Assembly: GCF_006345805.1 (NCBI RefSeq)
Contig: NC_043007.1
Location: forward strand, 56,048,001-56,112,000
Direction: 5' to 3'
Origin: Octopus sinensis
Taxonomy: Eukaryota
DNA length: 64,000 bases
Shown: positions 2,576-63,338 of the stretch, in pieces
How the letters are laid out: each line of letters opens with the position of its first letter
How positions within the stretch are numbered: position 1 is the stretch's first letter
Notes under the pieces: model-generated
What the model was told of the DNA's origin: nothing
Database searches by the model: none
The model's input: only the letters and a program-made list of their open reading frames with translations
Program-made: the position numbers and the translations under genes

Positions 2576-3623
2576 AAATGGTATACTCTATCAGTAATTG
2601 CTTATGCAAGATAGTAAAATATGGAAGTGGAAATCATGAAGGAAGTTAGGAGCAAGATAAGAAACGGATGATTCATATACTAGAATGTATATGATTACTT
2701 CAGCTCAATGTAGATTTTGACACTGTAGTACTGTTGTAACTGTACACTTTATCTGGTGTCTAGAAGAAACATTTATATAGTATATATTTCTCTTTATGTA
2801 CTGGTAACGCAAAGGGAAATTGTATCGAACTCTACAGTTACACATAAAGTGTCTTAGGTAGTGGAGAATTATTGGTTATATTGTTACTGGAGGTATTTGG
2901 GTGGCGAGAGTTGCAGGATCAGTAGTAATATTCATGTTGGGTCAAAATTTATTGAGCCGATTTAGAAAATTCGATTACTATTATATAAGTTACTGAAATT
3001 AGATTGTCACAAAGCTTAGTGTTCCTATTTAATCCATTAGCTACACGACTGTTTTGTGAAATAGAAGGGTTCGGATTTTGGTTTTGGAGAAATGATTTAA
3101 GAGTAATTGAGACTGGCAACTTTTCCCAGATTCGGCTAACGACAATTCCCAGTTGAGCCAGATTGATAGTAACAATAATATTATAGCCGGAAATATTTTC
3201 ATTGTTGTCTAAATTAAAATTTGCAACATCGTTTCTGTATTTACAGTAACCCTATTTAGACAGTCACCTATTTTTGGGACCTCGTTTTTGATGCAAACTA
3301 GAATGTATATACCTACGGGATTAATAACTTGTGTAGTCATTCGATCCCATTGTTATATTGATACCATCAGGTCTGCCCCGATTAGTAAAATTTTCACTAA
3401 GTTAAACAATTGTATTCCTAGCAGCTAAAATAGTATCAATATCCGGTTTGGATAGTTGGGAATTCTTCTTTATGTATGTATGTATGTATGTATGTATGTA
3501 TGTATGTATGTATGTATGTATGTATGTATGTATGTGTATGTGTGTGCATGTATGTATGCGCGTATTTGTGTATGCGTATATTTAATATATATACATTACT
3601 ATATACAAATATATATACATTAA

Positions 3624-4226
3624 TATAAAATCAAAATGAGGGTGAAAATTGGATATTAATTTGATAACATCAATTTTAACGCCAATGGTCTAGCATATAA
3701 AAATATGTATTACATACATAAATATAAGGGAATTTTTTACCACTATGTGGAAATCCTTATGCTAGAAAAGATCCGCTATGGTCTTAACCACTAAGAGTTC
3801 TGCAGAAAATTCTGCAAGCACCAGAAACGTAAGCGAGCAAGACAAATGAAAAGTAACAAAAATATAGACTAATCATAAACAATTGTTTCACTATTAATAA
3901 ATTACGTAATTTTACTTACGCAATTTATCTGTAGATCTTCAGTATGATCGTCTATAAAAACATAATTTGCAGAACTTCACGCCAGACATCAACACGATAT
4001 TGAAAATGTATGCAGTTGTACCTATTACATTTGTGGTTATTTTTAAAAGTCTTCGTATAGGTGCGCTAAATTACCGGAAATAGTACTGCATAAAATAATT
4101 CACTGCAGTAGACTTTATCCGGTTTGAGAACGTATTAATCTAAAATTAAAATCAAAATGAGCGGATCTTCTTCTAGCATAAGTGTTTCCACATAGTGCTA
4201 AAAAATTCTCTCTTATATTTATGTAT
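3624..4226 (-). mobile_element. ~0.52-kb non-coding hammerhead-bearing retroelement (retrozyme/PLE-like) with terminal redundancy and an inverted segment
   Basis: taaaatcaaaatgag repeated at 3626 and 4147 (521 bp apart). 3714-3777 is inverted at 4160-4226. 3624-3700 is homologous to the reverse complement of 60312-60378. Confidence 0.6.
3863..3956 (-). ncRNA. Type I hammerhead ribozyme (U10.1-U11.1 variant)
   Basis: Minus strand: stem I uauagac-gaucaua / uaugauu-a-gucuaua, core CUGAAGA, long stem II, GAAA, palindromic stem III AACAAUUGUU, cleavage triplet GUU. Confidence 0.75.
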
Positions 4227-4341
4227 ATACATTAATATATATAGTACTATATATTACATATATTGTAATATGTATAGTACAATTTGTATATAATATATAT
4301 CATATATTTATAAAATAGATAATACGCTATATATATATATA

Positions 4342-7442: not shown

Positions 7443-7886
7443 TCACCGAGTAGTAGTAGACAATTGCCTGACGCGAATGTTATTATCTGTGTAAGCGGTA
7501 AACTACATTTGATCATCAGCAGACCAAGCCAATGACATACAGAGAAAATCATCAAGAAAAACAGTAACAGTGTTCAAATATCCAGCATGACGATAGTGAT
7601 TAGTCTTCAGCTTGAAGTTAGTAGGCTTCCACACCTTTACTATATTATCCCGGCCATAGGTCACAATGATAGAGTGTGTGGTGCTTGGAGAAAAACGGAC
7701 ACAGCGTATGTGACCCTCTTCAGTAATTGTGTAGTTGCAAACACCAAGGGTATTCCAAAATTTAATAGATTTATCACGGAGTCGGATATAATTGTCACTT
7801 GAAAAGGAAACGTTCAAAACATCTTTACACTGGCCAACAATAGACTGGCTAAGGTCCCAGAGTCGCATGGTTTTGTCCCAAGAACT
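7443..7886 (-). pseudogene. RACK1: Processed RACK1 (GNB2L1) pseudogene, 5'-truncated with internal deletions
   Basis: [91 protein letters not shown] matches RACK1 WD40 blades and C-terminus. No introns; premature stop. Confidence 0.92.
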
Positions 7887-11356: not shown

Positions 11357-11481
11357 TATATATAATATACTGGAGTAAACACATAAATATAACAAACTCC
11401 GAGTAACAGGCTTTGTTGAATTTCTGCTGCTTTTAAATAAAGTATAATATAATATAATATAGGACAATCAGTTAATTGTCA

Positions 11482-11537
11482 TAATAATACTCAGAGTTTC
11501 AGATGCCGGGGTTAAAGGACATCCTCTTCAGTTATTA
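11482..11537 (-). ncRNA. Type I hammerhead ribozyme (minimal, PLE-type)
   Basis: Minus strand: uaauaa CUGAAGA ggauguc-loop-ggcaucu GAAA CUCUGA GUA uuauua. All core nucleotides present; stem I is 6 bp. Confidence 0.78.
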
Positions 11538-15730: not shown

Positions 15731-17109
15731 ACAAAATTGGTTCGTTTAAATATCGGAGGAAAAAGGAAAGATGGATGTTTTGAGACAATTTGTCTTGTGA
15801 ACAACGGACCGCGTGTGTCTGAGTCCGGTCAATAATGTTAACCATTGATCCGTTAGATTTCCAAAGCAATTCTGAATATTGACGGCAGACATAAGAGGAG
15901 AAACACTGCTCTGGCTGTGAGAATAGTATTCAATCGCTTGTCTGCCTCAGAACATTCTAGGTTTTATTGATAGGGAAGTTTTATTTAGCACACTGAAGGA
16001 GAGATAAATTAATTTCAAGAAATTTCCATTCCTCCAATGCAGAAACTGCAGTTCTTTGCTGTTATTTTCTTTCTTCCCAATAATTCTTTCTCTCCTAGTA
16101 TTTTTCTTTCCTTTTTTATACTTACATTTTTGATAGAATCGGACGTGTCGAATAGAGGTTTGCTGATTGAATATCAAACCTAGAGACTACGCGAGGACTT
16201 AGTTTTGGTAAAATGATTTGTATTTTCATTTGAAAATGTGGTATACGATAATAAAAACGTTAATAAAGCCAAGAGATTAGTGTGATTAAAGGTTTAAACC
16301 AGTTTAATACACAGTCGCAATAAGTTACAGTGGCATTGCAGTGCTTTATATATATTTTCAATCTTTGGTGGTCTTTAAGACGTGGAAATAAGAAATTATG
16401 AACTGTCAGTATGACTTCATAATTAATAATTCGTATATAGTGTGAGTAATTAAATTAAATTCCTCGAATGGTACGGTTTCAATTAAATTCAAACTTAGTT
16501 TGAATCAAGTTTACTTCATTTGACTCATTAACACATTTTAAAAGGCACTTGTTGTACATCCCTTAATATTCAGTTTTCTAAAATATTCATTGCTGGCTAA
16601 TATATGTTAATGATGTTAACATCGCATCGAGGCCCGTCGGTGGGCGAACGCAGCGCTTCTTAGAGGGATGGGCTGCAGAAATCTGCACGAGCGGGGCTGC
16701 ACACGCGTTACACTGGAGGTATCAGCGGGTACATCTCCCCCGGCCCGAGAGGTCGGGAAACCTCTGAACCACATCCCGTGATAGGGATCGGGACCTGGAA
16801 CCAACGCCGTGAACGAGGAGTTCAGAGTAGGCGCGGGTCATCAGCTCGCGTCGATCACGTCACTGTCCTTTGTATGCATGTATGTATATATGTATGTATG
16901 TATGTATGTATTATGAGTATGTATGCATGTGTGTATATGTGTGTATATATTATATATATTACATTTATATACGCATATATATTAGATATATGTGTGTATA
17001 TGTATTATATTATATATGTGTGCGTGTAGAGTGAAAGAGACAGATAGAGGGAGAGAGAGAGTGATGAGTAATTCCTCGTTACCATAGATATACTGCATAA
17101 AGTTGAAGT

Positions 17110-17861: not shown

Positions 17862-17913
<52 letters not shown>

Positions 17914-18180
17914 TTTATTTAAAGCAGCAGAAAATACAACAAAACCTGTTACTCTGAGTTTCTCTGATGACCCGCGCCTACTCTGAACTCCTCGTTCACG
18001 GCGTTGGTTCCAGGTCCCGATCCCTATCACGGGATGTGGTTCAGAGGTTTCCCGACCTCTCGGGCCGGGGGAGATGTACTCGCTGATACCTCTCGTGCGG
18101 ATTTCTGCAGCCCATCCCTCTAAGAAGCGCTGTGTTCGTCCACACACACTCACATACAAACACCCCCCCCACATCCACAC

Positions 18181-21730: not shown

Positions 21731-23810
21731 CAGGGTGTTTCAAAAAATTTGATATTTCGCAATCTAATAACTCTGCCAGTTCTTATTCAAATGACTTCAA
21801 ATCTTAACAGCATATGTAGAAACAGATCAAAATTTTATATTTACGAGGGACGTTCAATAAGTAATGCCTCTGACCCACTTGCAGTTGTTTGATCTAGCTG
21901 AAATGGTGCATGTGCAATCATTTATATCTCTATAGAGTAAGTGGCAAATTACAGCTCTGAATTAATTGTGGTTTCTGATTTACAGGTGTTTGAACCGAGT
22001 CAAGTGTGAAATGGAGCCTGTTGAGTGTCGAGCAGTGATCCGGTTTTTGTATTTGAAAGGACGCACACCACGGGAAACTTTTGATGAAATGAAAGTAACT
22101 TATGGTGATGATGCCCCATCATATGACCTTGTAAAACACTGGCATCGTGAATTCAAACATGGTCGGAACTCTGTGGAAACAGCTCCCAGATCTGGTCGCC
22201 CCTTCAGCCATTGATGAGGCATCTGTCCGTCAAGTTGAGGCTGCCATTTTGGAAGATCGACGCATAATTATTCGCCAAATAGCCTATGAGGTCAAGATTA
22301 GTACCGGGTCTGTGGAAACTATCATTCATGACCATTTGCATATGCAAAAGGTGTCTGCCAGATGGATTCCCAGGTTGCTCACGCCTTTCCAGAAGCAAGA
22401 ACGCGTCGAGTGCTCGAGGGTGAATTTGGAGATGTGCCAAGAAGATGAGTCAAAATTTTTCAAAAGACTGATTACACAGGATGAAACCTGGGTCCATCAC
22501 GATGATCCAGAGACCAAAGCCCAGTCAATGCAGTGGAAGCACCGTGACTCATCCCCCCCAAAGAAGGCAAGAGTGCAGCCCTCCGCTGGCAAGATCATGC
22601 TCACAGTCTTCTGGGACCAGGACGGAGTAGTGATGACAGATTTCCTGGCAAAGGGTACCACAATTGCAGGAGCTTATTATGCTTCACTTTTGAGGAAATT
22701 AAGAGAAGTTATCAAAATCAAGAGGCGGGGCAAGATCAGCAAAGGCATCCTCCTCCTTCAGGACAACGCTCCGGTCCACAACTCGCTTGTCGCCAGATCA
22801 GAAGCACAGGCGTATGGCTATGAACTCCTCCCCCATCCCCCTACTTTCCTGACCTTGCACCCTCTGATTTTCACCTCTTCCCAGTCATGAAGTTGTTTTT
22901 GAAAGGAAAGCATTTCCCAGATGATGCAGCCTTGGTTTCTGAAGTCACGTTCAGGTTGGAGGACCAAGCTGGGGTCTTCTACAAAAACGGTCTCCAGAGC
23001 TGCATCAAACAATGGGAGAAATGCGTAACTCTGGGTGGTTTCTATATAGAAAAAGACTAATAACTGTACCAAGTTTCGTTGCTCTACTGCTATGGGAAGT
23101 GGGTCAGGGGCATTACTTATTGAACGCCCCGCGTATCTTTCCAGGTATAGAAATGGCATTCACTAGAATAGAAAAGGCGTTTTTGTGTTGGAGTATGCTC
23201 GAGCACAATCGAACAAGACTAAAAAGTCACCAACGGCAATGCAGATTTGGATATGGCACAAAAAGTAGAAGGCTGTCTGTGCAGGGCTAAAGGATTTGGA
23301 CGACCACTAACATCGGAAGAGACGGTCGAGCGGGTTCGCCTAAAACTTTTGCGAAGCGCCCAAAAGTTCATAAGAACAAGTCTGGAAACCCAGATTCCTC
23401 CAACGAATATTTGGCGTGTCCTGAGGAAACATTTGTTAATGAAGCCCTACAGGCTGCAGGACATGACGATATATTACAAGCAAAAGCGCAAACAATTATA
23501 TGTTGATGTGCAAGAGAAACTTGAAACCGAGTTCAAGGAACGTCTTGTTTCCTGCAAGCCTAGAAGAACTTGAGCAGAGAATCGTTACAGCACTGGAGAC
23601 TGTTGCCTAAGAGATGCTGCAGCGTGTTTGAGAGGAGCTGGACACGTGTGCCGTGTCTCAGGCGGTGCGCATATTGAACATTTGTGAAATCGTTTATGGA
23701 ATCCACATACTTTAAAATTTCTCATTCAAATTTGGAGGAATAAATTTTGTTGCTCAAAATTAAGCCTGTTTCGTTTCATTTGTTTTAATCATGTAGTTTG
23801 AAACACTCTG
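21731..23810 (+). mobile_element. Tc1/mariner-superfamily (DUF4817-type) element, deleted, hosting a nested mariner
   Basis: TIRs cagggtgtttcaaa / tttgaaacactctg with TA on both sides. Transposase remnants MAFTRIEKAF.. and ..CRVSGGAHIEHL*. Confidence 0.85.
21844..23133 (+). mobile_element. Full-length (1290 bp) mariner DD34D transposon with a frameshifted transposase
   Basis: TIRs cgagggacgttcaataagtaatgcc / ggcattacttattgaacgccccgcg with TA TSD. ATG at 22011 (MEPVECRAVIRF); WIPRLL, ITQDETW, QDNAPVH, YFPDLAPSD. Frameshifts near 22200 and 22842. Confidence 0.95.
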
Positions 23811-30659: not shown

Positions 30660-32340
30660 CTTGAAGTATGATATTTAAAGCCCGTTCACAGTATTTGGCT
30701 ATCTGAGGTCGACGACAGTATGAAGGTATATGCTATTGGATTTACTTCAGGAATGCTTTGGTGTCCATAGAATTTATTTAGAAAAACAGAAAATAGAATT
30801 CATGAGACCCTTTATTCAGAACCTCTACGATCGTTTTGACCCATCATGCATCGGTGCCTTACAGACGAGATGCTGTACAATCATCATGCACGATAGGTGC
30901 AGGTATGTCTCCTCTGGTGACTTTTCAAAAATAATTCATTATGGAAACGGTTATATATAAATTTCCAAAGCGAAGGTATCAGATGTTACTTTGGATTCTT
31001 CGAATATATATTACCAATATATATATATTACCAATGCGTTTAAGAGTGCAAAGATGGATAACACCTCACTTCCAATGGTAGTGGTTAGCTCTTACCAAAG
31101 TCTACCCAAACGTGCCTACAAGCTAATTGATAGCCCACTTCAGTATTACCAAATACCAACACCGGTATTCGGTCTCATACTCTTGCATATGGATTCATTG
31201 AATATGAGGTTCCCCATGGGAAATTTCACCATTAATTCGCAGTGACTGAAACAAAAGGATATTATGGCGAGATGCAACATTTCTGTGATCCTATTTGTGG
31301 TGACCATAAACTTACTGCTAAAGGTGGAAAGAAAACAGTGGCGAGGACTCCAAACTAATTAAAACACTGGATACTCAGTCTACAAGGCCGACCATCAGTG
31401 ATGACATAACGGTCATGTCACCATCAACCCAATGGATGCTGAGAACACTGAGCTCGCTGGAAAAGATACTTACATGGCCACAAATAAAGTTCAATCCATC
31501 AAAATCTCGGTGACTGAACATCCTTAAATAAGACTGATAAATGAAATTTCAACGTTCAGTGATTTATGATTCCAAGAAGGAAAATAAAAAGGAATCCAAC
31601 AGGAAGAATTACGACTGTACCCTTAAGGATATTGGCATCATCGGAGATCCTACAAGAGAAATGACTAAGGGCAGTTGATAAAAGCCGGCTTATGACTATG
31701 GTATATCCAATTTGGGAACATACACACATGCAATGTCCATTTTCGAAGTTCTGCCTAACAATTTCATCGGTGATAGAGGAATTCAAAGACAGGAAGGCAT
31801 GAACAATCTCACATTACTTCAGTCTGAGTATGAAAACGTCAAACAAGCTAACAAGATCATAAAGTACTACAGACTGTGGAAGGCCCGAGAAAAAAGTAGC
31901 AATATACTGGTGACGCAAAGAGATTGTTGGAATATTCTATCAAGGATTTGGCAACTACGGTGTCAAGAGAAGGATGAAACACAAACGTTAGAAGCAAGTG
32001 GTAGCTCTTATTACAAAGGATCCGCGGGTCACGAGAGGACAGTCGTCGTGAAAACGTAGTAGGGATTGCCCACGAAGGACAATGGATACAGTGGGACCAG
32101 GCACTCGAGCGCCTACTATCATAGTAACAATTCCAGAGTACTAACCATGGAAAATTATCCTTCTGCCTACGTGCTGTCAATGATATCTTGCCAAACCCAA
32201 GTAAAGTTAAAATATGAAACAAAGAGGAAGGTCCAACTGGCAAGCAATGCTGAAAACACTTTGAACTTTGAATCACATTGTGACCGGATGCGTTTGAGCA
32301 CTGGGATAGTACAGGAATCTCAGGCCCAACTACTACCCTT
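30660..32340 (+). mobile_element. Highly degenerate HERO-like RT/RLE LINE
   Basis: LLDLLQECFGVH (RT domain-3-like), RLWKAREK, GQWIQWD, FCLRAVNDILPNPS. Confidence 0.55.
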
Positions 32341-32432
32341 CATACTACCCCACCCCTGCTACGCTTGCTGTTACTGCAACCACTACTGCTGTTGCACATA
32401 ACAATATTATCAGTGATATCAGTGATGATACA

Positions 32433-32463
<31 letters not shown>

Positions 32464-32465
<2 letters not shown>

Positions 32466-34512
32466 CAAACTGTTCCCAGAAGAGCAGAAAGGATGCCGCA
32501 AGGGCTCATATGACTGTAAAGATCAACTAATGATTAATAAAGCTGTAACTGAAGACAGCCACAGAAAGAAGAAAGGCCTCAGTATGGCCTGGATTGACTA
32601 CAAAAAGGCGTTTGATAGCATCCCCCACACATGGATCCTCGAAACACTAGCCATTAACAAAGTAGCACCAACAATCATAAAATTCATAGAGCACTCTATG
32701 AATAAATGGCGAACAGTCCTACACCTCCAAACAAAAGAGGGACTCATGAAAACCAAAGACATCCCCATTAGAAGAGGAATATTCCAGGGAGACACGCTCT
32801 CTCCACTCCTTTTCTGCTTGGCACTGTCACCTCTATCTGATATGCTAAATAGAACTGGATGCGGATATAAATGTTACGGCAAAACGATCAGCCACCTTTT
32901 ATATATGGATGACCTAAAACTATACGCTGCAGATGACAAACAGCTGGAAACACTATTAAAGACAGTTCATGGATTTACCAAAGAAATAGATATGAAATTT
33001 GGATTAGAAAAATGCGCCAAAGTAACCATGAAAAGAGGAAAACTAGTTAAGAGTAACAACATCACACTAGATAAAACCAATGAAATAAAAGAATTAGACC
33101 AAAGCCAAACTTACAAATACTTAGGAATCCATGAACTAGATAAGACACAACACACACAAATGAAAGAGAAAATAAAAAAAGAATATTATAGACGAGTTAG
33201 ATCAATACTAAAAACAGAGCTCAATGCTAAAAACAAGATAATAGGTATCAACACTTTAGCTGTCCCAGTTATAAGTTACAGCTACAATATCCTTAACTGG
33301 ACACGAAATGAACTGTCCAAAATAGATAGGAAAACAAGAAAAATACTGACAGGATCTAGGATGCATCACCCAAAATCTGACATAGAAAGACTATATATAC
33401 AACGTATAGAAGGTGGTAGAGGCCTTATACAGCTGGAAAACTACTATAAAATAACCACCATAGGACTGCAAAAATACCTACTTCAGAAGGAAGGAAAACT
33501 GATCCAGATAGCAGCAAAACACGAGCAAAACAAAAAACTGTTCTCAGTATTTAAGGAAGCTGACAAATACAAACAAGAAATCATACCACCTAATAAACAC
33601 AAAGAAGAAGAAGAAGATGATGAAGAAACAACAAAAGCTATAAAACAAATGAAATCCAAACTAAAAATAGAACAGCAACGAGCCATGATAAAACGATGGC
33701 AAGAAAAACCCCTTCATGGTAAATACTGCACTAAACTAAACGCAAAAGAAATAGACAAAGAAAAATCCCAGCAATGGTTGAGAAGCTCAGGACTCAAAGC
33801 AGAAACAGAGGGATTTTTAATTGCAGCACAAGACCAAAGCCTCCCCACCAGAAATTACCAAAAACATGTAATGAAAAGAAATATTACAAGTATGGCCACA
33901 GCTCATAAGCTGAAACTAGAATCAATCAATCAATCAATCAACTGCAGAATATGTGGAGATGGACAAGAAACAATAAATCATATTATCTCTAGCTGCCCAG
34001 TCCTGGCTAAGAAGGAATATATTCACAGACATGACAGAGTTGGAACCTACATACATTGGAAGCTATGCCAACATTATGGAATAACAACAGAAAAAAGATG
34101 GTATAGGCACACACCAGAAAAGGTCACAGAAAACGAGAAAGCAACCATACTCTGGGATATGCCGATACACACAGATAGAGAAATTAAGGCCAACAGACCA
34201 GATATAGTTGTCAGAGATCATGAAGAAAAAAAATGCTTTCTAATTGATGTATCAATACCGGCAGATGACAACGTGTCTCTAAAAGAAATGGAGAAACTCT
34301 CAAAATACAAAGATCTGGAAATAGAGGTAACTAGAATGTGGAACCTGAAAACAGAAACAATTCCTATCATAGTAGGTGCATTAGGCATGATAAAAAAATA
34401 TTCAGACAAATACATAACAAAAACACCAGGACTTACAAACACATATAACATACAGAAAATTGCACTACTAGGCACTGCACACATCCTACGCAGAACACTT
34501 TCCATACAATAA
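32464..34512 (+). CDS. R4/Dong reverse transcriptase-restriction-like endonuclease, uninterrupted but lacking the N-terminus
   Basis: EQKGCR, WIDYKKAFDS, GIFQGDTLSP, LYMDDLK, YKYLG, GGRGL, CRIC..ETINHIISSC, RHD, NRPDIV, IDVSIP, EKLSKY. The first ~33 codons of the annotated 715-aa ORF come from flanking sequence. Confidence 0.9.
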
Positions 34513-34660: not shown

Positions 34661-37600
34661 GTACTATGCATCCGCGAAAATCTCAACGATCCTATGTGGT
34701 GAAAAGATTAGAAGTACTATGCATCCGCGAAAATCTCAACGATCCTATGTGGTGAAAAGATTAGAAAACGGCAACGTTCCCACAAAAAGCCTTCTTGGCA
34801 AGAGCGTATCCAACATCAAATTAAACTACCCAGGTCTGACATTGAATGTATGGAAAACCTTAAGGTTGACAAGACTACCAAACCTACAAAAACCCCCAAA
34901 TTAAAGAAAAAATACATGAAAACTATACTTGATATTGATGCCACCATAGAAACCATCAAACAAAAAGTATCTGCTAAAGCTGCCCGCATAGCGAGGTATG
35001 AAAAGCGTGTTGGATTCTTCAAGGACAACAACATGTTCAAAAATAACCCCCAAAATTTTTACAGGAAGATAGGGAAAACACCAGTTACTGTAAAGTGTGT
35101 ACCATCAAAAGACGAAGTGCACGGTTTTTGGAATAAAATTTGGGCAGAAGAAAAAGCAAACAACGAAAAGGCCCCTTGGATTGATAGAATAGCTACGGAC
35201 TTGTACTCCTTAGAGGAGCAAAAGTGGGAGGGTGTCAAGGTAGAAGATGTAAGATCTGCTCTCAGGAGGTCAAGCAAATGGAAGTCTCCAGGAAAGGATA
35301 AAATTCTTAACTTCTGCTTGAATGCCTTCCCAGAGAGGCATGAACTGCTAACAGAACTTTACAATGATGCTTTGCAACACCCTAGTAGGATGCCTGCCTG
35401 GCTAGCTAATAGTTTAACATTCTTGCTCCCAAAAAGTGAAGAAACAAACGAACCAAAAAGCTATTGACCCATAACCTGCTTAACAACTATGTATAAACGC
35501 TAACATCTGTCCTGACGGAATATACCTATAGTTTTTAATAGACAGCAGCATATTCCCTAATGAACAGAAAAGATGTAAACGTGGATCCTATGGTTGTGAA
35601 GATCAGCTACTCATCAATAGGATGAACTTAGAAGATTGTCACAAACGACACAAAAACTTGTCAATAGCCTGGATAGACTATAAAAAGGCTTTTGAAAGCC
35701 TACCACATAGCTGGATAAAGAAATGCCTAGAAATGTACAAAATAGTGCCTACTCTGCGAAACTTTTTGTCTGTAAGTATGAGATCATGGAGAACCATACT
35801 GACTTTGAACAGTGACGATGAATCTCTAAATGCTGGTGATGTAAAAATTTCATGTGGCATTTTCCAGGGCGACTCACTATCACCACTCTTCTTTTGTTTA
35901 GCCTTAATACCTCTCTCATAATTGCTCAATCACGCATAGTGCGGATATAAAATGTTGGATAAAAATATAAATCATCTCATTTACACGGATGATTTAAAGC
36001 TCTTTGCAAAGAATGGTCAACAACTCAACAGCTTACTAACGATTGTTAAACAATTCATCGAAGACATCAGAATGCAAATTGGTCTCGATAAATGTGCAAA
36101 AGCTACTTTTATCAAAGGGAAAATGACGGAAACATCTAACGTTTACTTCGACCAGCAGAATGTCATAAATGAGTAAGACCCAGTGGAGAGCTACAAGTAC
36201 CTAGCGGTAATTGAAGGGGATGGAATAAGGCATTCAGTGATGAAGGAAAGGATCAGGAGAGAATGTTATCACAGAGCAAGAGCAATACTCAAGACAGAGC
36301 TGAATGCAAGAAACAGGATCGAAGCGATCAATGCTTTAGCCATACCAGTCGTGACTTACAGTTTCAATATCGTTAACTGGTCAATTACTGAAATATGTAA
36401 TCTTGACAGAAAAATACGAAAACTGTTGACAATGCATAGAATGCACCACCCTAAGGCAGATATATATCGACTTTATCTGCCAAGAAAAGAGGAGGACGTG
36501 GGCTTTTACAACTGGCAATAACAATGAAGATTGCTACATTTGGCCTAGATACCAACCTGAAAAACTCTGAGGACTAGATGTTAAAACTTGTCTCAAAACA
36601 TAAAAACAATAAAGCATCATACTCAGTAACAAAACAGGCAAAGGAATATCTAAGTGAATTCCGAATACAACAAATTCCGGAATTAGACACACAAGAAACA
36701 AGCACAGAAAAAGCTAAGCGCATGAAAACCCGTGCTAAAACTGCTGCCTCAGATATTCTGAATGATAAATGGCAAGAAAAACCTCTCAATGGCAAATACC
36801 CAAAGAGAGTGAATAATGCAGATGTTGACAAAGCCCTGACCCCTCAATGGCTAATGGCCTCTGGCTTAAAATCTGAAACAGAAGGGTTTATCATAGCAGC
36901 TCAAGATTAATGCCTACCTACAAGGAACTACCAGGCCAAAATATATTAAAGAACGGCAGTAGCCCGATATGTCATGTTTGTCAACAACAAAATGGAACCA
37001 TTGATCATGTTGTATCCAAGTGCAGTCTTCTTGCGCCTACAGAGTATCTTAACAGGCATGATAGAGCTGCACAATATATTCACTTGGTAATTTGCAGAAG
37101 CCTGGACTTGCTCCATGATAAAAACTGGTGGGAACAGAAACCACCTCCAGTGCTTGAAAATGACCACATCTCACTCCTCTGGAACTTCACCATTCAAACT
37201 GACAGAAAGATAGACGCGAATAGGCCAGACATCATATTAAAAGACTTCAGACGAAAAACATGCCTCCTCATTGATATGACTGTAATATAAACGTATCTGT
37301 CAAGACCTAGCAGAAACTGAGCAAATATAAAGATCTGGAAACAGAAATCAGCAAAATGGGGAACCTGAAGACTAAAACAATACCTGTTGTCATAGGTGCC
37401 CTGGGAATGATATTAAAAGGGGCTGATTGCTACCTAACTCAGATACCAGGAAACCCCCAAATGGCAGAAATTCGAAAGATAGTGCTCATATCCTATGCAA
37501 AATACTTTCTTTGTAATCTCAAGTTTTAAAGCAAACATAATTTTCGTATGGTTTTTTAGGCATTCACTAGCACAACACTAAGTACAAAACCAAATGTATG

Positions 37601-37729: not shown

Positions 37730-40700
37730 GACCGGAAACGGGTTGAGCATCCTCCTCCTTATGGGCTGATTAATAATACATCTAGTGATGGTGTCACAAT
37801 AAACACACTGGTAATTGCGCAACCTGATAATCGCTACCTCATATGAGTGACAATGAAAGAACAAAATATTGCGAATAACGGTGGTGATGAAACTGAAGCC
37901 AATGATGGTGACAGTGTTACACCCGGTAGGCTCAGAGACTCTGGTGCGGCTCCAGCCTGTCGATATCTAGAAAGAGATATCCAGCCTGTCGATATCTAGA
38001 TGGAGCAAGCAAATCAATGCTGTGGTCATGGAGTGTTACTTTCTGAGCAGCCCGGTAGATGAAAATGGTGCTCAAGTTAGGGGTTACCGACAACGTATGT
38101 ATGACCATTAGACAGAAATCTACGACGATTTCATCTCAATCGAAGGAGAGGGGCTTTCTCCGTCCGGGTTGCGGATCCGTGGAATAAGCTGCCCGACGAG
38201 ATAGTGAAGATGCCAACGACCGCTCGGTTCAAAGTCTCTCTTGACCAGAAATGGCCTGAACTCTTTGTATGAACACCCTCCCTGTACATAACTCCATGTC
38301 TCCCTACATGACCTTGCTTTTGCTTTTTGAGCCAAAAGAATTAAATCAAATTAAACACGGAACAGAGACTATGTGATGAAGCTAGAGCAATAAGAAAAAA
38401 ACTGTTGTTTCACGGAAGTGGAGCTTGAAGCTATCAAAAGATGGGTCATGGAAAATACCAGCAGAGATAGCAATGGAAATACAGTTCTTACTAATAAGAG
38501 TAGTCTCATAGCACAGGAAAAGAGCAGTGGTAGTTTACTTGATGAGAGACATATAGATGATCTAAAAGAAGACAAGAAAACTAATGCTGACATAACAGAT
38601 GAACAAAAGGCAATCTACGACAGAGTAAAGGTAAGAATACAAGAGAACGATAGCGACATTATTTGCAACCTTAAAAAGGTTGATAGATGGAAATTGAACC
38701 AAGAAACGAAAAATGTCGATGAAATTCTGAAATACATCAGAACAAGCAATATCACAGAAACAAATAATTTGATCAAGGCAGCAAGTATTGTTGTAGCAGA
38801 AAACGTGGTAGTTGATGTCAGGAAAAAGAAACATAATGGGAGTGGGAAAAGAAAAGATCCATGGTGGAAAAGAAGAATCCAGGCAGGGTTAGACATGCTC
38901 TCGAAGGAAATCTTTGTGTTAGACCGAAAAGAGAAAGGGGAACTTAAAAGCGAACAAAAATACAGGGCGCTGAAAAAGAAGTATAATATTGAACGAAAGG
39001 GCCTGAAAGTGGTAATAGAAGAACTGAAACAGCGCCTCGTTGCAAAGAAAACAAAGCTGATAAGATACAACCAAAGAATGAAGGGTTATCACCAGAATAG
39101 GTTGTTCAGAGTAGATCTGAAGAGATTCTATAAAGAAAGAAATGGAGAGTGTACAGACGAAAAGTTGATACCAGATGACATTGAAAGTCAAAGGTTGGGA
39201 GTGACATCTGGAGCAAAGAGAAGGCGCACAAGAAAGATTCTGAATGGTTGCAAGAAGTGAAACAAGTAGTAGTCTGTCTAAAACAGGCAGAATTAGTCAT
39301 TTCAGTTAGGGAAGTGAAGGAAATCAGCAAAAAATGATCAACTGGAAGGCCCCAGGACCAGATGGAGTTCAGGGCTACTGGTTCAAAAGATTTGCTGAAT
39401 GTTATGCACGAACAGCTGCACAAATCAACACCTTGTTAAATGCCGACCAAGGAACACCAGAGTGGTTGACACTGGGAAGGACAATGCTGTGCCATGAAAA
39501 ACTTCGGAAAGGGCAATACGGTAGACAATTACAGGCCGATATCCTGTTTGCCACTTATGTGGAAGTAGTTATTCACTGGAATACTCGCAGAGTCAATGTA
39601 CGAACATCTGGAAAAAAATGGAATCCTGCCACATGAGCAGTAGGTTTCAAGCGTAAGTGCAGAGGTACCAAGGATCAACTCCTGATAGACAAAACTATAC
39701 TTAGAGACTGCAAGAGAAGGAAAAGTAACTTAGCCATGTCATTGATCGACTGTTGTAAGGCGTACGATGATCCCACATTCTTGGATTAGATTATGGAGTG
39801 TATGAACGTATTTGGTATTGCATCGAATGTCGAACGATTGCTTGAAAAAAGTATGGTGAATTTGAGGACGGACCTGACAGCATACAGACAATGTTTAGGG
39901 ACAGTAGAAATTAGGAGGGATATCTTCCAAGGCGACTGCCTGTCCCCACTGATCTTTGTACTGTGCTTGATACCACTAACACTGATTCTGAGGAACGCAA
40001 AAGCCACCAACAAAAATCAACCATTTGTTATTCATGGATGACCTTAAACTTTATGGTAAAGATGAAGCCCAAGTCAGTTCCCTCGTTGATATGGTTTATA
40101 CCTTCGGTGCTAATATCAGAATGGAGTTCGGACTGAGAAAGTGTGGTGTGTTAGTCTTGAAGAGAAGCAAAATCAAATGTATGGACGGGCTAACGATACC
40201 GTCGGGGGAGGTTATGAAGCAGATAGAAGAGACGGGCTATAAATACTTGGGGATTTTGGAAATGGATAAATTGAAGGAGAAAGAAATAGCAGAAAATTTA
40301 TGGTGGAGTACTTGCGCAGACTGAGACTGATCCTTAAGTCGAAATTAAATGGATGGAAGAAGATCGAAGCTATCAACACCTGGGCGGTTTCATTCTTAGA
40401 TATGGAGCTGTAGTAATCGCATGGACAGTAGACGAACTAAACAGCTTAGACAGAAAGACAAGGAAGTTGCTAACTAGATATGGGTCACTCCACCCAAAAA
40501 ATGACGCAGACAGATTGTATGTAGCAAGAAAAAGAGGGGGACGAGGATTTATTGGATGCAATCGCAACATTAGTGCAAAAGAAGACATAGCATGGTATGT
40601 AAAAAATGCCACAGAACCGCTATTATTAGAAGTAAAAAGGTCAGGCTTGTGTAGGATGAAATATTGCAAAGATAAAGCACTGTACAAGCAATTGAAAACG

Positions 40701-40916
40701 AATAAAACTGAAAATAGGTGGGTAAAGAAAAGAATGCATAGTCAATTTCGTAAGGATGTTGAAGATAAGACAGACGGAGAAAAAAGATGGCTATGGATGA
40801 ATAAAAGTGATTTAAGACCGGAAACGGAGGCTCTAATCTGTGCTGCCCAAGAGCAAGTACTAAGAATAAACTACATAAAATACAGAATAGACAACACAGC
40901 AGAAAGTGATAAGTGC
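37730..40916 (+). mobile_element. Third R4/Dong family element, degenerate, 3'-truncated
   Basis: DPWWKRRI, NWKAPGPDGVQGYW, DIFQGDCLSP, LFMDDLK, GGRG, ETEALICAAQEQ; breaks off at the first Cys of the zinc knuckle. Confidence 0.9.
38118..38356 (+). mobile_element. CR1/L2-type LINE 3' end nested in the R4/Dong element
   Basis: AFSVRVADPWNKLPDEIVKMPTTARFKVSLDQKW plus a short UTR and tail. Confidence 0.75.
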
Positions 40917-41551
40917 AATAGCCATAGATATATGTGAATGTTGAATTTGACCTGCGAAGTCTGCTCGTTATGAACTTTTGGACGTACTTGTGTGGAGGGA
41001 GTAAAAGACTTTTTTCAAGATGTATATGGATTTGACCTGTGGAAGTTTGTATACTTATGAACTTTGGGTGTATTTGTATGACGGAAGTAAAAGATTTTTT
41101 TCAAATATTTTTTCAAATATTAAAAAAAAAAAATTTTTGAAAATTTTAAAAATATTTTAATGACCTGATAAAACTATTTTAATTGGTGCATATTTATTTT
41201 TACCTTTATTTTATATTTGTCGATTAGGTTTTTGGAAGTTTTTGAATTTTTAGCCATTTAATATTTAACTTTTTGATAGGCCGTTCTGTTTGTATTTTAT
41301 TCGATTATATACTTTTACCTTCTGTGATTTTATGTATATGTATTATTATGTGTTTGGGAACCATGGTGAATTTCATATATGATTAAATGTTTGAGGGTTG
41401 GTGTTCAGTCGATCAACTATAGATCAATCGATTGATACAATGGAACTATGGCACTTGACCCTTGCTGTTAGCCTTCAATACATGTTGAGATCCTTTACTT
41501 GTGTATATTATATATAGATGTGTGTGTGTGTGTGTGTGTGTGTGTCTGTGC

Positions 41552-48355: not shown

Positions 48356-48554
48356 TCTTTTATTCTATTTCAGTCATTTGACTGCGGCCATGCTGGAGCA
48401 CCGCCTTTAGTCGAGCAGATCGACCCCGGGAATTATTCTTTGTAAGCCTAGTACTTATTCTATCGGTCTCTCTTGCCGAACCGCTAAGTGTCGGGGACGT
48501 AAATACACCAGAATCAGTTGTCAAGCGATGTTGGGGGGGACAAACACAGACACA

Positions 48555-59210: not shown

Positions 59211-60164
59211 TTATGTATATATTATGTGTGTGTGTGTGTGCGTGTGTGTGTGTGTGGTGTGTGTGTGTGTGTGTGTGTGTGTTGTGTGTGTGTGTGTGTA
59301 GATGTCTCTCGTGTGTTTATGCATTTTTCACTCGTGGTGCTCGCTACTCAATAACTATTTTTTATTTATTTATAATTGAACGCAACGCAGCCTTGTCCAC
59401 TGTAAGTTCTTACATGTATATATAATTTCAACGACTCTACACTCTGTTTTCTTTCTTTCTCTCTATCTCTCTATAATCCTTTATATTTCTCGATTGCCCC
59501 CCTTCTTCTTTGCTGTCTTCTGTCTGTCTTTCTTCCACTCCTTAATATCTTTTGTTCCTTCTCCCTTCTGTATCCCTTAGTTTCTTTTCCTTATCCTCTC
59601 TCTTGTCCCCTTCCTCTCTGTCTCTTTCTCACCGTGACTACAGGCCATTTCTCTCACCCATGTCTTTACTGAACGTGACCGCCACCGCGCTGGATGTCGT
59701 TTCTCTCGCCTCCCGACATTTTTCTCTTCTACTCTTTACATCTCTTTATTCTATTTCCTTTATGGCGTTACCCATTAGAATTCGTCTTGGCCTAACAGCC
59801 CATAATGTTCGTCTTCGTTGATTGTTTCCATCCTACATCCTTTCTGTTGTTGTTTATTCGTTCGAAGCCCTAATTTTCCACAAGCTTTACATTTTAAAAT
59901 TTTCTGGATGCTACTGTCTTATGAGGTTTTCCTATTTTGACGTTAAAAGCACGAAATGCGTCAGTAAGACAGTTGACAACTGATGAGCGAGTTATCTTCT
60001 GGTATTTTTTCTGTACTAGTCTCTCGTGTCTTTACGTATTTTTCCCCCCATTGGTGATGTCCTGTACTTAATAAATAAATATATATATATATATATATAT
60101 TATTATATATATATATATAATATATATATATATATACACATAAATATATATATATATATATATA

Positions 60165-60792
60165 TTGGTTTTGTTAAGTTTGATCTGAGAACATAAAAAG
60201 TTTTTGGGTGGAGAATGGCGATTTGACGTCTATATCTAGCATGTTGACTGTCCACTTTTCGTGTGCAGTCCTTAATTGGTATATTTAAATATTTTAATCT
60301 TCGGATTCTTTCTTTAATATGCTAGACCACTGGTTCTAATTGATAAATATCAATTTTTACCCTAAATTTAATTTTATAAATATTTGTTCTCTAACCGATA
60401 AATTAACTGCTGCTAACTATTAGCTGCAGGCTAGTTTTCTCGGGTCTCATCGCGCCAAAGTAAAGGCATTTGAAATATATATTTCAAATGTAATAGGCCG
60501 GACTCCATGCACGCGATATTTTGGTGTCGTGTTGGCATTTAGTCCAGCAAATTACATTTTACATGGGACCATGCTGATGATGCTGCACTTTTCCTTGCGG
60601 AAAATAACAGCTGAAACTAAATTTAGTACATGGGTAAATATTTATTTCGTATATTTTTCACTTGTTTATTGCTTTGGTTTTGTTGAGTTTGATCTGAGAA
60701 CATAAAAATTTTTTTGTGGAGAATGGCGATTTGACGTCTATATCTAGCATGTTGACTGTCCACTTTTCGTGTGCAGTCCTTAATTGGTATAT
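60165..60792 (+). mobile_element. ~509-bp hammerhead-bearing non-coding retroelement with ~120-bp terminal direct repeat, inserted in (TA)n
   Basis: 60165-60284 is repeated at 60674-60792; (TA)n on both flanks; complete hammerhead inside. Confidence 0.75.
60569..60633 (+). ncRNA. Type I hammerhead ribozyme (U10.1-U11.1 variant)
   Basis: ccaug CUGAUGA u-gcug-cac-uuuucc-uugc-ggaaaa-uaa-cagc-u GAAA CUAAAUUUAG UA caugg; predicted cleavage after GUA at 60628. Confidence 0.85.
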
Positions 60793-60816
60793 ATATATAT
60801 ATATATATATACATAC

Positions 60817-60896
<80 letters not shown>

Positions 60897-60937
60897 ATAT
60901 ATGTTTAAATATTTGTTGTGCAAGATTTTTTATGTGA

Positions 60938-61279
60938 AGAAGCATAGGAGAACGGGTGAATGAACATTGGAGACAACTCAAGGAAGGTAAAAGCTCATCG
61001 ATTCTGTACCAACACGCCGAACAGGAACACGGGGAATCAATCAATAACATAGAGATTAAGATATTTCCACACATAGAACAGATGCAACAATTAGACAAAT
61101 TACAGAAGCTACACATATAATAGAAAATAAACCTAGCCTGAATAGAAAACTAGAATGGAGCAATAGCACACACCACAACATATGACGATAGAGGATCCCG
61201 AAAACATAATAAATAAATACACAGATAAATAAACAAATAGAAATGAATAACTATATATATGTATATATATCTATGTATG

Positions 61280-61334
<55 letters not shown>

Positions 61335-61790
61335 GTGTATATATATGTGTATATGTATATATATATATATATTTTTTTTTTTTCGATTAGATTTATTATT
61401 ATTATTACTAATATTGTTGTTATACATACATACAAGCATATGTAATGATAATAATGGGTGGATGTAAATACATGAACAAAATTAAAAGCAACAACAATAA
61501 AAACAAAATACAAATTACATGAATGTATATAAACAGAAGATACAAATATTACATGCATCCCCCCACACACACACTAAATAAACATAGACGCACATAGAGA
61601 TATAAGCATGCGCAAATGAAGACATACAATAGAAATACAAAATGGCTGACGGTTAGTAAGGAGAGACACAAATACGAAAGAAGAAAACAAAGGACCACTG
61701 ATGAGGTCACAGGAGTGTGAAGAAAGAACTCTGGCCGAAATAAGATTAAGATTAATGTAAAAATATCACTGAAGCAAAATAACACCAAAT
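60938..61790 (+). mobile_element. Penelope-like element 3' remnant: GIY-YIG endonuclease C-terminus plus 3' region with a hammerhead core
   Basis: [32 protein letters not shown].. (frameshift) ..[26 protein letters not shown]; CTGATGA-ggtca..tggcc-GAAA at 61698-61740. Confidence 0.75.
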
Positions 61791-61849: not shown

Positions 61850-62419
<570 letters not shown>

Positions 62420-62490: not shown

Positions 62491-63251
62491 GTACAGGACA
62501 TCACCAACGGGGGAAAATACGTAAAGACACGAGTGACTAGTACGGAATAAATAACAGAAGAAAACTCGCTCATCAGTTGTCAACTGTCTTACTGACGCAT
62601 TTCGTGCTTTTAACGTCAAAATAGGAAAACCTCATAAGACAGTAGCATCCAGAAAATTTTAAAATGTAAAGCTTGTGGAAAATTAGGGCTTCGAACGAAT
62701 AAACAACAACAGAGTGGATGTAGGAAGGAAACAATCAACGAAGACGAACATTATGGGCCGTTAGGCCAAGACGAACTCTAATGGGTAACGCCATAAAGGA
62801 AATAGAATAAAGAGATGTAAAGAGTAGAAGAGAAAAATGTCGGGAGGCGAGAGAAACGACATCCAGCGCGGTGGCGGTCACGTTCAGTAAAGACATGGGT
62901 GAGAGAAATGGCCTGTAGTCACGGTGAGAAAGAGACAGAGAGGAAGGGGACAAGAGAGAGGATAAGGAAAAGAAACTAAGGGATACAGAAGGGAGAAGAA
63001 ACAAAAGATATTAAGGAGTGGAAGAAAGACAGACAGAAGACAGCAAACAAGAAGGGGGAAATCGAGAAATATAAAGGATTATAGAGAGATAGAGAGAAAG
63101 AAAGAAAACAGAGTGTAGAGTCGTAGAAATTATATATACATGTAAGAACTTACAGTAGACAAGGCTGTGTGGCGTTCAATTATAAATAAATAAAAAATAG
63201 TTATTAAGTAGCGAGCACCACGAGTGAAAAATGCATAAACGCACGAGAGAC

Positions 63252-63338
<87 letters not shown>

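Follow-up and report, generated by a model that had tools for sequence, protein, structure and literature searches.

A U-U pairing at positions 10.1 and 11.1 of hammerhead ribozymes is already known and is not new. Perreault et al. 2011 (PMC3088659) reported a natural U10.1-U11.1 hammerhead, this being the best-tolerated mispair, and the axolotl ribozyme HHR_Amex2 carries U·U at the base of helix II together with a 2-bp stem III and a tetraloop (PMC7229834). HHR_Amex2 is present in ∼60 000 copies, its monomer cleaving by 22 % in 1 h and its dimer much better (PMC7229834). Hammerheads of Penelope-like elements (PLEs) have an unpaired base between positions 9 and 10.1, a long helix II, a short helix I and a palindromic helix III (PMC4209133), and cleave as dimers (review, PMC6765202); an extra base after A9 is also documented for a viroid hammerhead (PMC1636495). 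PLE insertions are laid out as partial tandems and inverted 5′-truncated copies, with a bias towards (TA)n (PMC8557442). The non-LTR retrozymes of Xenopus, which derive from PLE pLTRs, have units of 51–972 bp, many of them monomers, and one of nine predicted dimers cleaved in vitro, so that an intact motif is no guarantee of activity (bioRxiv 10.64898/2026.07.22.740005).

Here we describe two type I hammerheads, H1 and H2, found in a single 64-kb stretch of DNA (the window). We consider it probable that they belong to two related subfamilies of ∼510–520-nt units, likely a non-autonomous PLE (non-LTR retrozyme), and that the U-U of H2 is a minority form generated by the loss of one G.

Hammerhead motifs in the window

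Both strands of the window were scanned structurally for hammerheads, using 100 block-wise dinucleotide shuffles as background. Three hammerhead-like folds (H1, H2 and H3) were present in the real window, compared with 0.01 per shuffled window, and a U-U pair combined with a palindromic stem III occurred in 0 of the 100 shuffles, none of which gave any fold with U-U. The two ribozymes with this combination are:

3871–3949 (3863–3956 with the extended stem I), minus strand: H1, type I hammerhead from the structural scan
60569–60633, plus strand: H2, type I hammerhead from the structural scan

Both possess the CUGANGA and GAAA boxes, the UH, the three helices and the open helix I of type I hammerheads. 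The H1 core (CUGAAGA and GAAA) is intact, with U at both 10.1 and 11.1; stem I has 7 bp, the cleavage triplet is GUU, and past the U-U stem II has another 3 bp, followed by an internal loop and then a hairpin of 13 bp. GUU is a weaker hammerhead triplet. The H2 core (CUGAUGA and GAAA) is likewise intact, with U60581 (10.1) facing U60612 (11.1), a 5-bp stem I, the triplet GUA, and a stem II that continues past the U-U with 4 bp, an internal loop and a 6-bp hairpin. Complete cores, an elongated and internally looped stem II and U-U in place of G-C had been reported for both sites in a first-pass annotation of this DNA; all were recovered by our scan and folds, and structure is indeed retained whilst the stem letters differ. 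As read, both copies have U·U where type I hammerheads have a paired 10.1-11.1 (usually G-C), and neither has an extra base between 9 and 10.1. When 201-nt stretches were searched against Rfam 15, neither H1 nor H2 was matched at E-values up to 10. Ribozymes of this kind are missed by Rfam models, as well as by searches that require G-C.

The perfectly palindromic stem III claimed by the same annotation is present in both copies, although the 10-mer given for H1 takes in the core A14 and the cleavage-site U17. Counted from A15.1 to U16.1, the palindrome has 8 nt in H1 and 12 nt in H2, which as monomers would form 2 bp and 4 bp, respectively, each with a 4-nt loop. Computed energies were −6.4 kcal/mol for the H1 duplex against +2.4 for its hairpin, and −10.8 kcal/mol for the H2 duplex against 0.0 for its hairpin. 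This greater stability of the duplexes fits cleavage as dimers and, along with the literature, agrees with the earlier view of the palindrome as a sign of dimer cleavage. With its 4-bp stem III, H2 may also be able to act as a single copy. In neither ribozyme does the predicted minimum-energy fold leave the core open.

The third fold, H3 (11482–11537, minus strand), is another type I hammerhead, with G10.1·U11.1 and without the extra base; it has a 7-bp stem II, a near-palindromic stem III and TA tracts on either side. With its G10.1·U11.1, H3 is a further case in this genome of a hammerhead with U at position 11.1. A sequence link between H3 and either H1 or H2 was looked for and none was found. 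Further hammerhead-like elements were observed in the window. On the plus strand, 61698–61740 holds a hammerhead core with a G-C closed stem II, without a stem I partner. A GC-rich inverted repeat pair lying by microsatellites (16620–16860 and 17965–18130; 98 % over 134 nt) includes CUGAUGA with no GAAA nearby, and its flank at 17891–17961 recurs downstream of H3 (11394–11461).

Host units and their common descent

H1 and H2 each lie within a longer unit, for which we annotated the following features:

3641–4161, minus strand: non-coding H1 unit of ∼520 nt, a complete permuted monomer (from sequence)
3620–3640, minus strand: repeat of the first ∼20 nt of the H1 unit (from sequence)
4160–4229, plus strand: inverted, 5′-truncated copy of the 3′ part of the H1 unit, 70 nt, 88.6 % identical to 3711–3777
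3960–4033, minus strand: hairpin domain just upstream of H1, with a 9-bp closing helix, conserved with the H2 unit
4074–4123, minus strand: second hairpin domain of the H1 unit, conserved with the H2 unit
60165–60673, plus strand: non-coding H2 unit of 509 nt, with (TA)n in front of it (self-comparison and folding)
60674–60800, plus strand: partial tandem repeat of the H2 unit, ∼128 nt, 95 % identical to 60165–60292, followed by (TA)n
60485–60559, plus strand: hairpin domain upstream of H2, homologous to 3960–4033
60392–60443, plus strand: second hairpin domain of the H2 unit, conserved with the H1 unit

Over the ∼190 nt upstream of the two ribozymes, 127 of 203 aligned columns were identical (63 %; z 10.9 against 300 shuffles). 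A further segment of the two units was 72 % identical over 79 columns, and an invariant 13-mer (4021–4033 in the H1 unit) had exact copies only in the H1 and H2 units. The downstream parts alone showed weak homology (z 2.4), and MAFFT misaligned the ribozyme cores. This homology indicates that the H1 and H2 ribozymes are not independent, but go back to common descent of their host units, and the earlier statement that their stem sequences were otherwise unrelated does not hold. Since the host units are homologous, the shared architecture, previously ascribed to selection on structure, is better put down to descent, with selection on structure probable besides, than to convergence. Both units were also predicted to form the same two upstream hairpin domains, with changes that mostly preserve pairing (n=2, too few for covariation statistics). 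Conserved as they are outside the ribozyme, these domains are a candidate signal for the mobilising reverse transcriptase.

With GC contents of 0.30 (H1 unit) and 0.34 (H2 unit), longest stop-free frames of 44 and 93 aa, and predicted circular folds that are 66–68 % paired (z −4.75 and −6.6, respectively; 30 shuffles), the units have the short non-coding sequence, GC under 45 % and highly self-paired monomer RNA of non-LTR retrozymes. Their length of ∼510–520 nt is above the 170–400 nt of Cervera (2020) and inside the 51–972 range given for Xenopus (bioRxiv 10.64898/2026.07.22.740005). No RT or GIY-YIG ORF was found inside the H1 or H2 unit, both of which close on themselves and have no long frame. 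The inverted 70-nt copy precedes the H1 unit, and the outer ends of both sit in TA-rich DNA; taken together, the two loci show the partial tandem, the inverted 5′-truncated copy and the microsatellite target of PLE-type insertions. Each locus amounts to ∼1.0–1.25 units, and no copy with two complete hammerheads was found within the 64-kb window.

A number of other elements were seen in the window. Beside H2, 60938–61078 matched a 277-aa protein (E-value 2.4e-5; seven matches in all), whose motifs we take to be of the PLE GIY-YIG type, including a cysteine linker like that of Neptune, and the surrounding 60930–61190 (plus strand) resembles a broken 3′ fragment of such an endonuclease. This fragment had no Pfam GIY-YIG match, and a word-index search with it returned none; it may share just the TA target with the unit. 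Inverted arms of ∼770 nt (59283–60047 and 62509–63272; 97–98 %) surround H2 and the endonuclease-like fragment, and carry a degenerate minimal-hammerhead-like motif at 59913–59973 and a second CUGAUGA at 59980. A foldback element at 61968–62419 has 161-nt arms that are 98 % complementary, with a further long hairpin (62151–62238) inside. Decayed non-LTR retrotransposon fragments occupy 32284–34512, 34712–37290 and 38394–40937 (plus strand), the first with an RVT_1 match; a link of the units to these neighbouring RT-bearing fragments was ruled out, there being no shared sequence. The window also contains a mariner transposase fragment (22135–22890, plus strand; 89–92 % to unnamed proteins and, for a portion of its length, 87 % to an entry from a mantis shrimp), a decayed, RACK1-like WD40 retrocopy (7503–7886, minus strand) and a short dispersed repeat (2505–2566 and 48365–48427), which we take to be an abundant octopus SINE-like sequence.

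Relatives of the H2 unit in public contigs

The H2 unit, or part of it, was found in 20 of the 24 runs listed. Contigs of four of these runs, from organisms A, C and D, were aligned to 60283–60790 at 80 % likeness. This placed 1089 contigs for X1 (organism A), 485 for X5 (C), 214 for X12 (D) and eight for X11 (A), the last of which was taken as RNA by guess only and gave no cover across 60538–60639. Scans for the family pattern returned none in metagenome contigs and none in viral contigs. An extra G behind 60581 was present in at least 96 % of the depth in X1 (20777/21690), at least 67 % in X5 (3676/5500) and at least 39 % in X12 (433/1114); contig depth at these sites is not copy number, and the shares are minimum values, since any contig stopping at the fork is scored as G-less. 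With the extra G, a U is left unpaired after A9, and stem II opens with G·U, G-C, C-G, U-A and G-C. Going by these contig sequences, a bulged U with G10.1·U11.1 is the most frequent form among the H2 relatives of the two runs with the best cover, and the U-U of H2 reads as a minority allele that has lost one base (G). The H2-family majority has the extra base between 9 and 10.1, the long helix II and the palindromic helix III of the PLE type. The first-pass annotation had set its U-U against a possible G-C family consensus: for H2 the consensus is indeed largely not U-U, but bulged U and G·U take its place, not G-C. A single deletion can turn a PLE-type bulged U with G·U into what looks like a U-U hammerhead, which calls for caution when such ribozymes are called from single copies.

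Other positions also varied between runs. Position 60588 was G in 58397/64081 of the depth in X1 and 5276/6051 in X5, but in only 57/709 in X12; with this G, the stem II loop of H2 becomes CA/AA closed by G·U, identical to that of H1. One A of the palindrome was missing from 11049/87840 in X1, 4217/9057 in X5 and 0/1263 in X12, and the perfect H2 palindrome is therefore not invariant. A single X11 contig revealed a sibling with C11.1 and another 10-nt palindrome.

An alternative, possible but in our view rather unlikely, is that U10.1-U11.1 is fixed and functional in the H1 subfamily and in a minor H2 sublineage, having arisen from the bulged U with G·U by the loss of one G. The mismatch would be tolerated because the long stem II with its CA/AA loop docks on stem I, and weak activity of the monomer would lead to dimer-dependent cleavage, by analogy with HHR_Amex2. 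At least 96 % of the X1 depth has the G, however, and H1 is an old copy (internal repeats 88.6 % alike) with the weaker GUU triplet. The residual G-less depth (913 in X1, 1823 in X5 and 681 in X12) leaves room for a sublineage in X5 and X12, but is inflated by fork-ending contigs such as X12 record 20, which stops at 60582. Loss of the G is the sole indel of the H2 copy relative to the X1 majority among the 12 of 21 indel rows listed, and the H1 and H2 units, 63 % alike, both lack it; this is an odd coincidence, which favours a propagated G-less sublineage over private decay. Moreover, U-U is a natural and the best-tolerated mismatch (PMC3088659), and in HHR_Amex2 the U·U goes together with a stem III of 2 bp, the same length as in H1. 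As such, the U-U of H1 could be either the same G loss or, with the same rather low probability, a fixed subfamily trait as in HHR_Amex2. An extended scheme, which we consider speculative and unlikely, is that the lineage lost the conserved G-C stepwise, from the G-C of one sibling through the bulged U and G·U of the H2 family to a U·U that became fixed in that of H1, the conserved CA/AA loop in the long stem II compensating, within a multi-domain fold of ∼500 nt kept at 63 % identity. If true, it would provide a natural series for how weakening of the core tunes monomer versus dimer cleavage.

Head-to-tail joints with short spacers of variable length were present in all four runs examined, leading from 60790 back to 60286–60288 (X1, X5 and X11) or starting from 60767/60781 (X12). 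A complete dimer was not seen among these contigs, which are too short to reveal one. Joint depth in X1 was about 1150, small against the 21 000–95 000 over the ribozyme. Loose contig ends entered TA repeats at several positions, among those listed 60383 and 60457. On the evidence of these contigs, the H2-type unit is high-copy in three related animal species. The joints bear on whether the units, in place of a separately propagating non-coding element, might be pseudo-LTRs (solo or truncated) belonging to an autonomous PLE family. The PLE-type hammerhead traits, the inverted and partial tandem layout, the presence, 130 nt downstream of H2, of an endonuclease fragment resembling that of PLEs, and the relatedness of retrozymes and pLTRs (bioRxiv 10.64898/2026.07.22.740005) are all in line with such an origin. 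Nevertheless, both copies self-close after ∼510–520 nt, unit end is joined to unit start by short spacers only in contigs of three species, and the measured stop-free frames give no coding remnant in the unit, making a pseudo-LTR identity improbable. No autonomous PLE with the sequence of the unit came to light.

Proposed life cycle and comparison with described systems

As a non-autonomous retrozyme, the preferred reading, a unit of this kind would be mobilised as follows. By analogy with retrozyme work (PMC7229834), a transcript through head-to-tail units would be cut at each hammerhead, probably aided by an exchange of the palindromic stem III between two ribozymes, and the resulting unit-length RNA would likely be circularised. 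The reverse transcriptase/endonuclease of a PLE partner, acting in trans, could then copy this RNA into (TA)n tracts, and reinsertion would leave more-than-unit, 5′-truncated and inverted insertions.

The copies in the window may themselves be poor cutters, since there is one ribozyme per locus and the cores are not open in the minimum-energy folds. The same observations, together with some seven differences between the H2 copy and the majority sequence of X1, are in keeping with both copies being dead relics in which U-U and GUU represent neutral decay and neither of which cleaves. We give this reading a substantial though minority share of our confidence: the core letters are intact in both H1 and H2, and the reading applies to the two copies rather than to their family, so that it is compatible with the retrozyme explanation.

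No description of the H1/H2 repeat family or of G10.1·U11.1 was found in a literature search that mostly lay outside subscription journals, and repeat databases or supplements may list it. The units appear to constitute an undescribed high-copy retrozyme family, which is shared by three or more related animal species. With axolotl Rtz_353/HHR_Amex2 they share the type I topology, the U·U, a short low-GC non-coding repeat and, in the case of H1, the 2-bp stem III. Rtz_353, however, is 350 bp and forms long tandems, compared with ∼510–520 nt and about 1.0–1.25 units per locus here; furthermore, stem II is long and internally looped here, and the H2-family majority has the bulged U with G·U. The Xenopus retrozymes are vertebrate families, for which ‘active’ denotes two complete units, unlike the H1 and H2 loci. 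PLE pseudo-LTR hammerheads (PMC4209133) resemble H1 and H2 in the helix traits given above and in their partial tandem and inverted copies; in those ribozymes G10.1-C11.1 is highly conserved and an RT/GIY-YIG ORF lies between them, whereas in H1 and H2 position 11.1 is U, stem III is longer, at up to 4 bp, and the unit is without an ORF. The mismatch itself, as read in both window copies, is the same U10.1-U11.1 as in the variant of Perreault et al. (PMC3088659).
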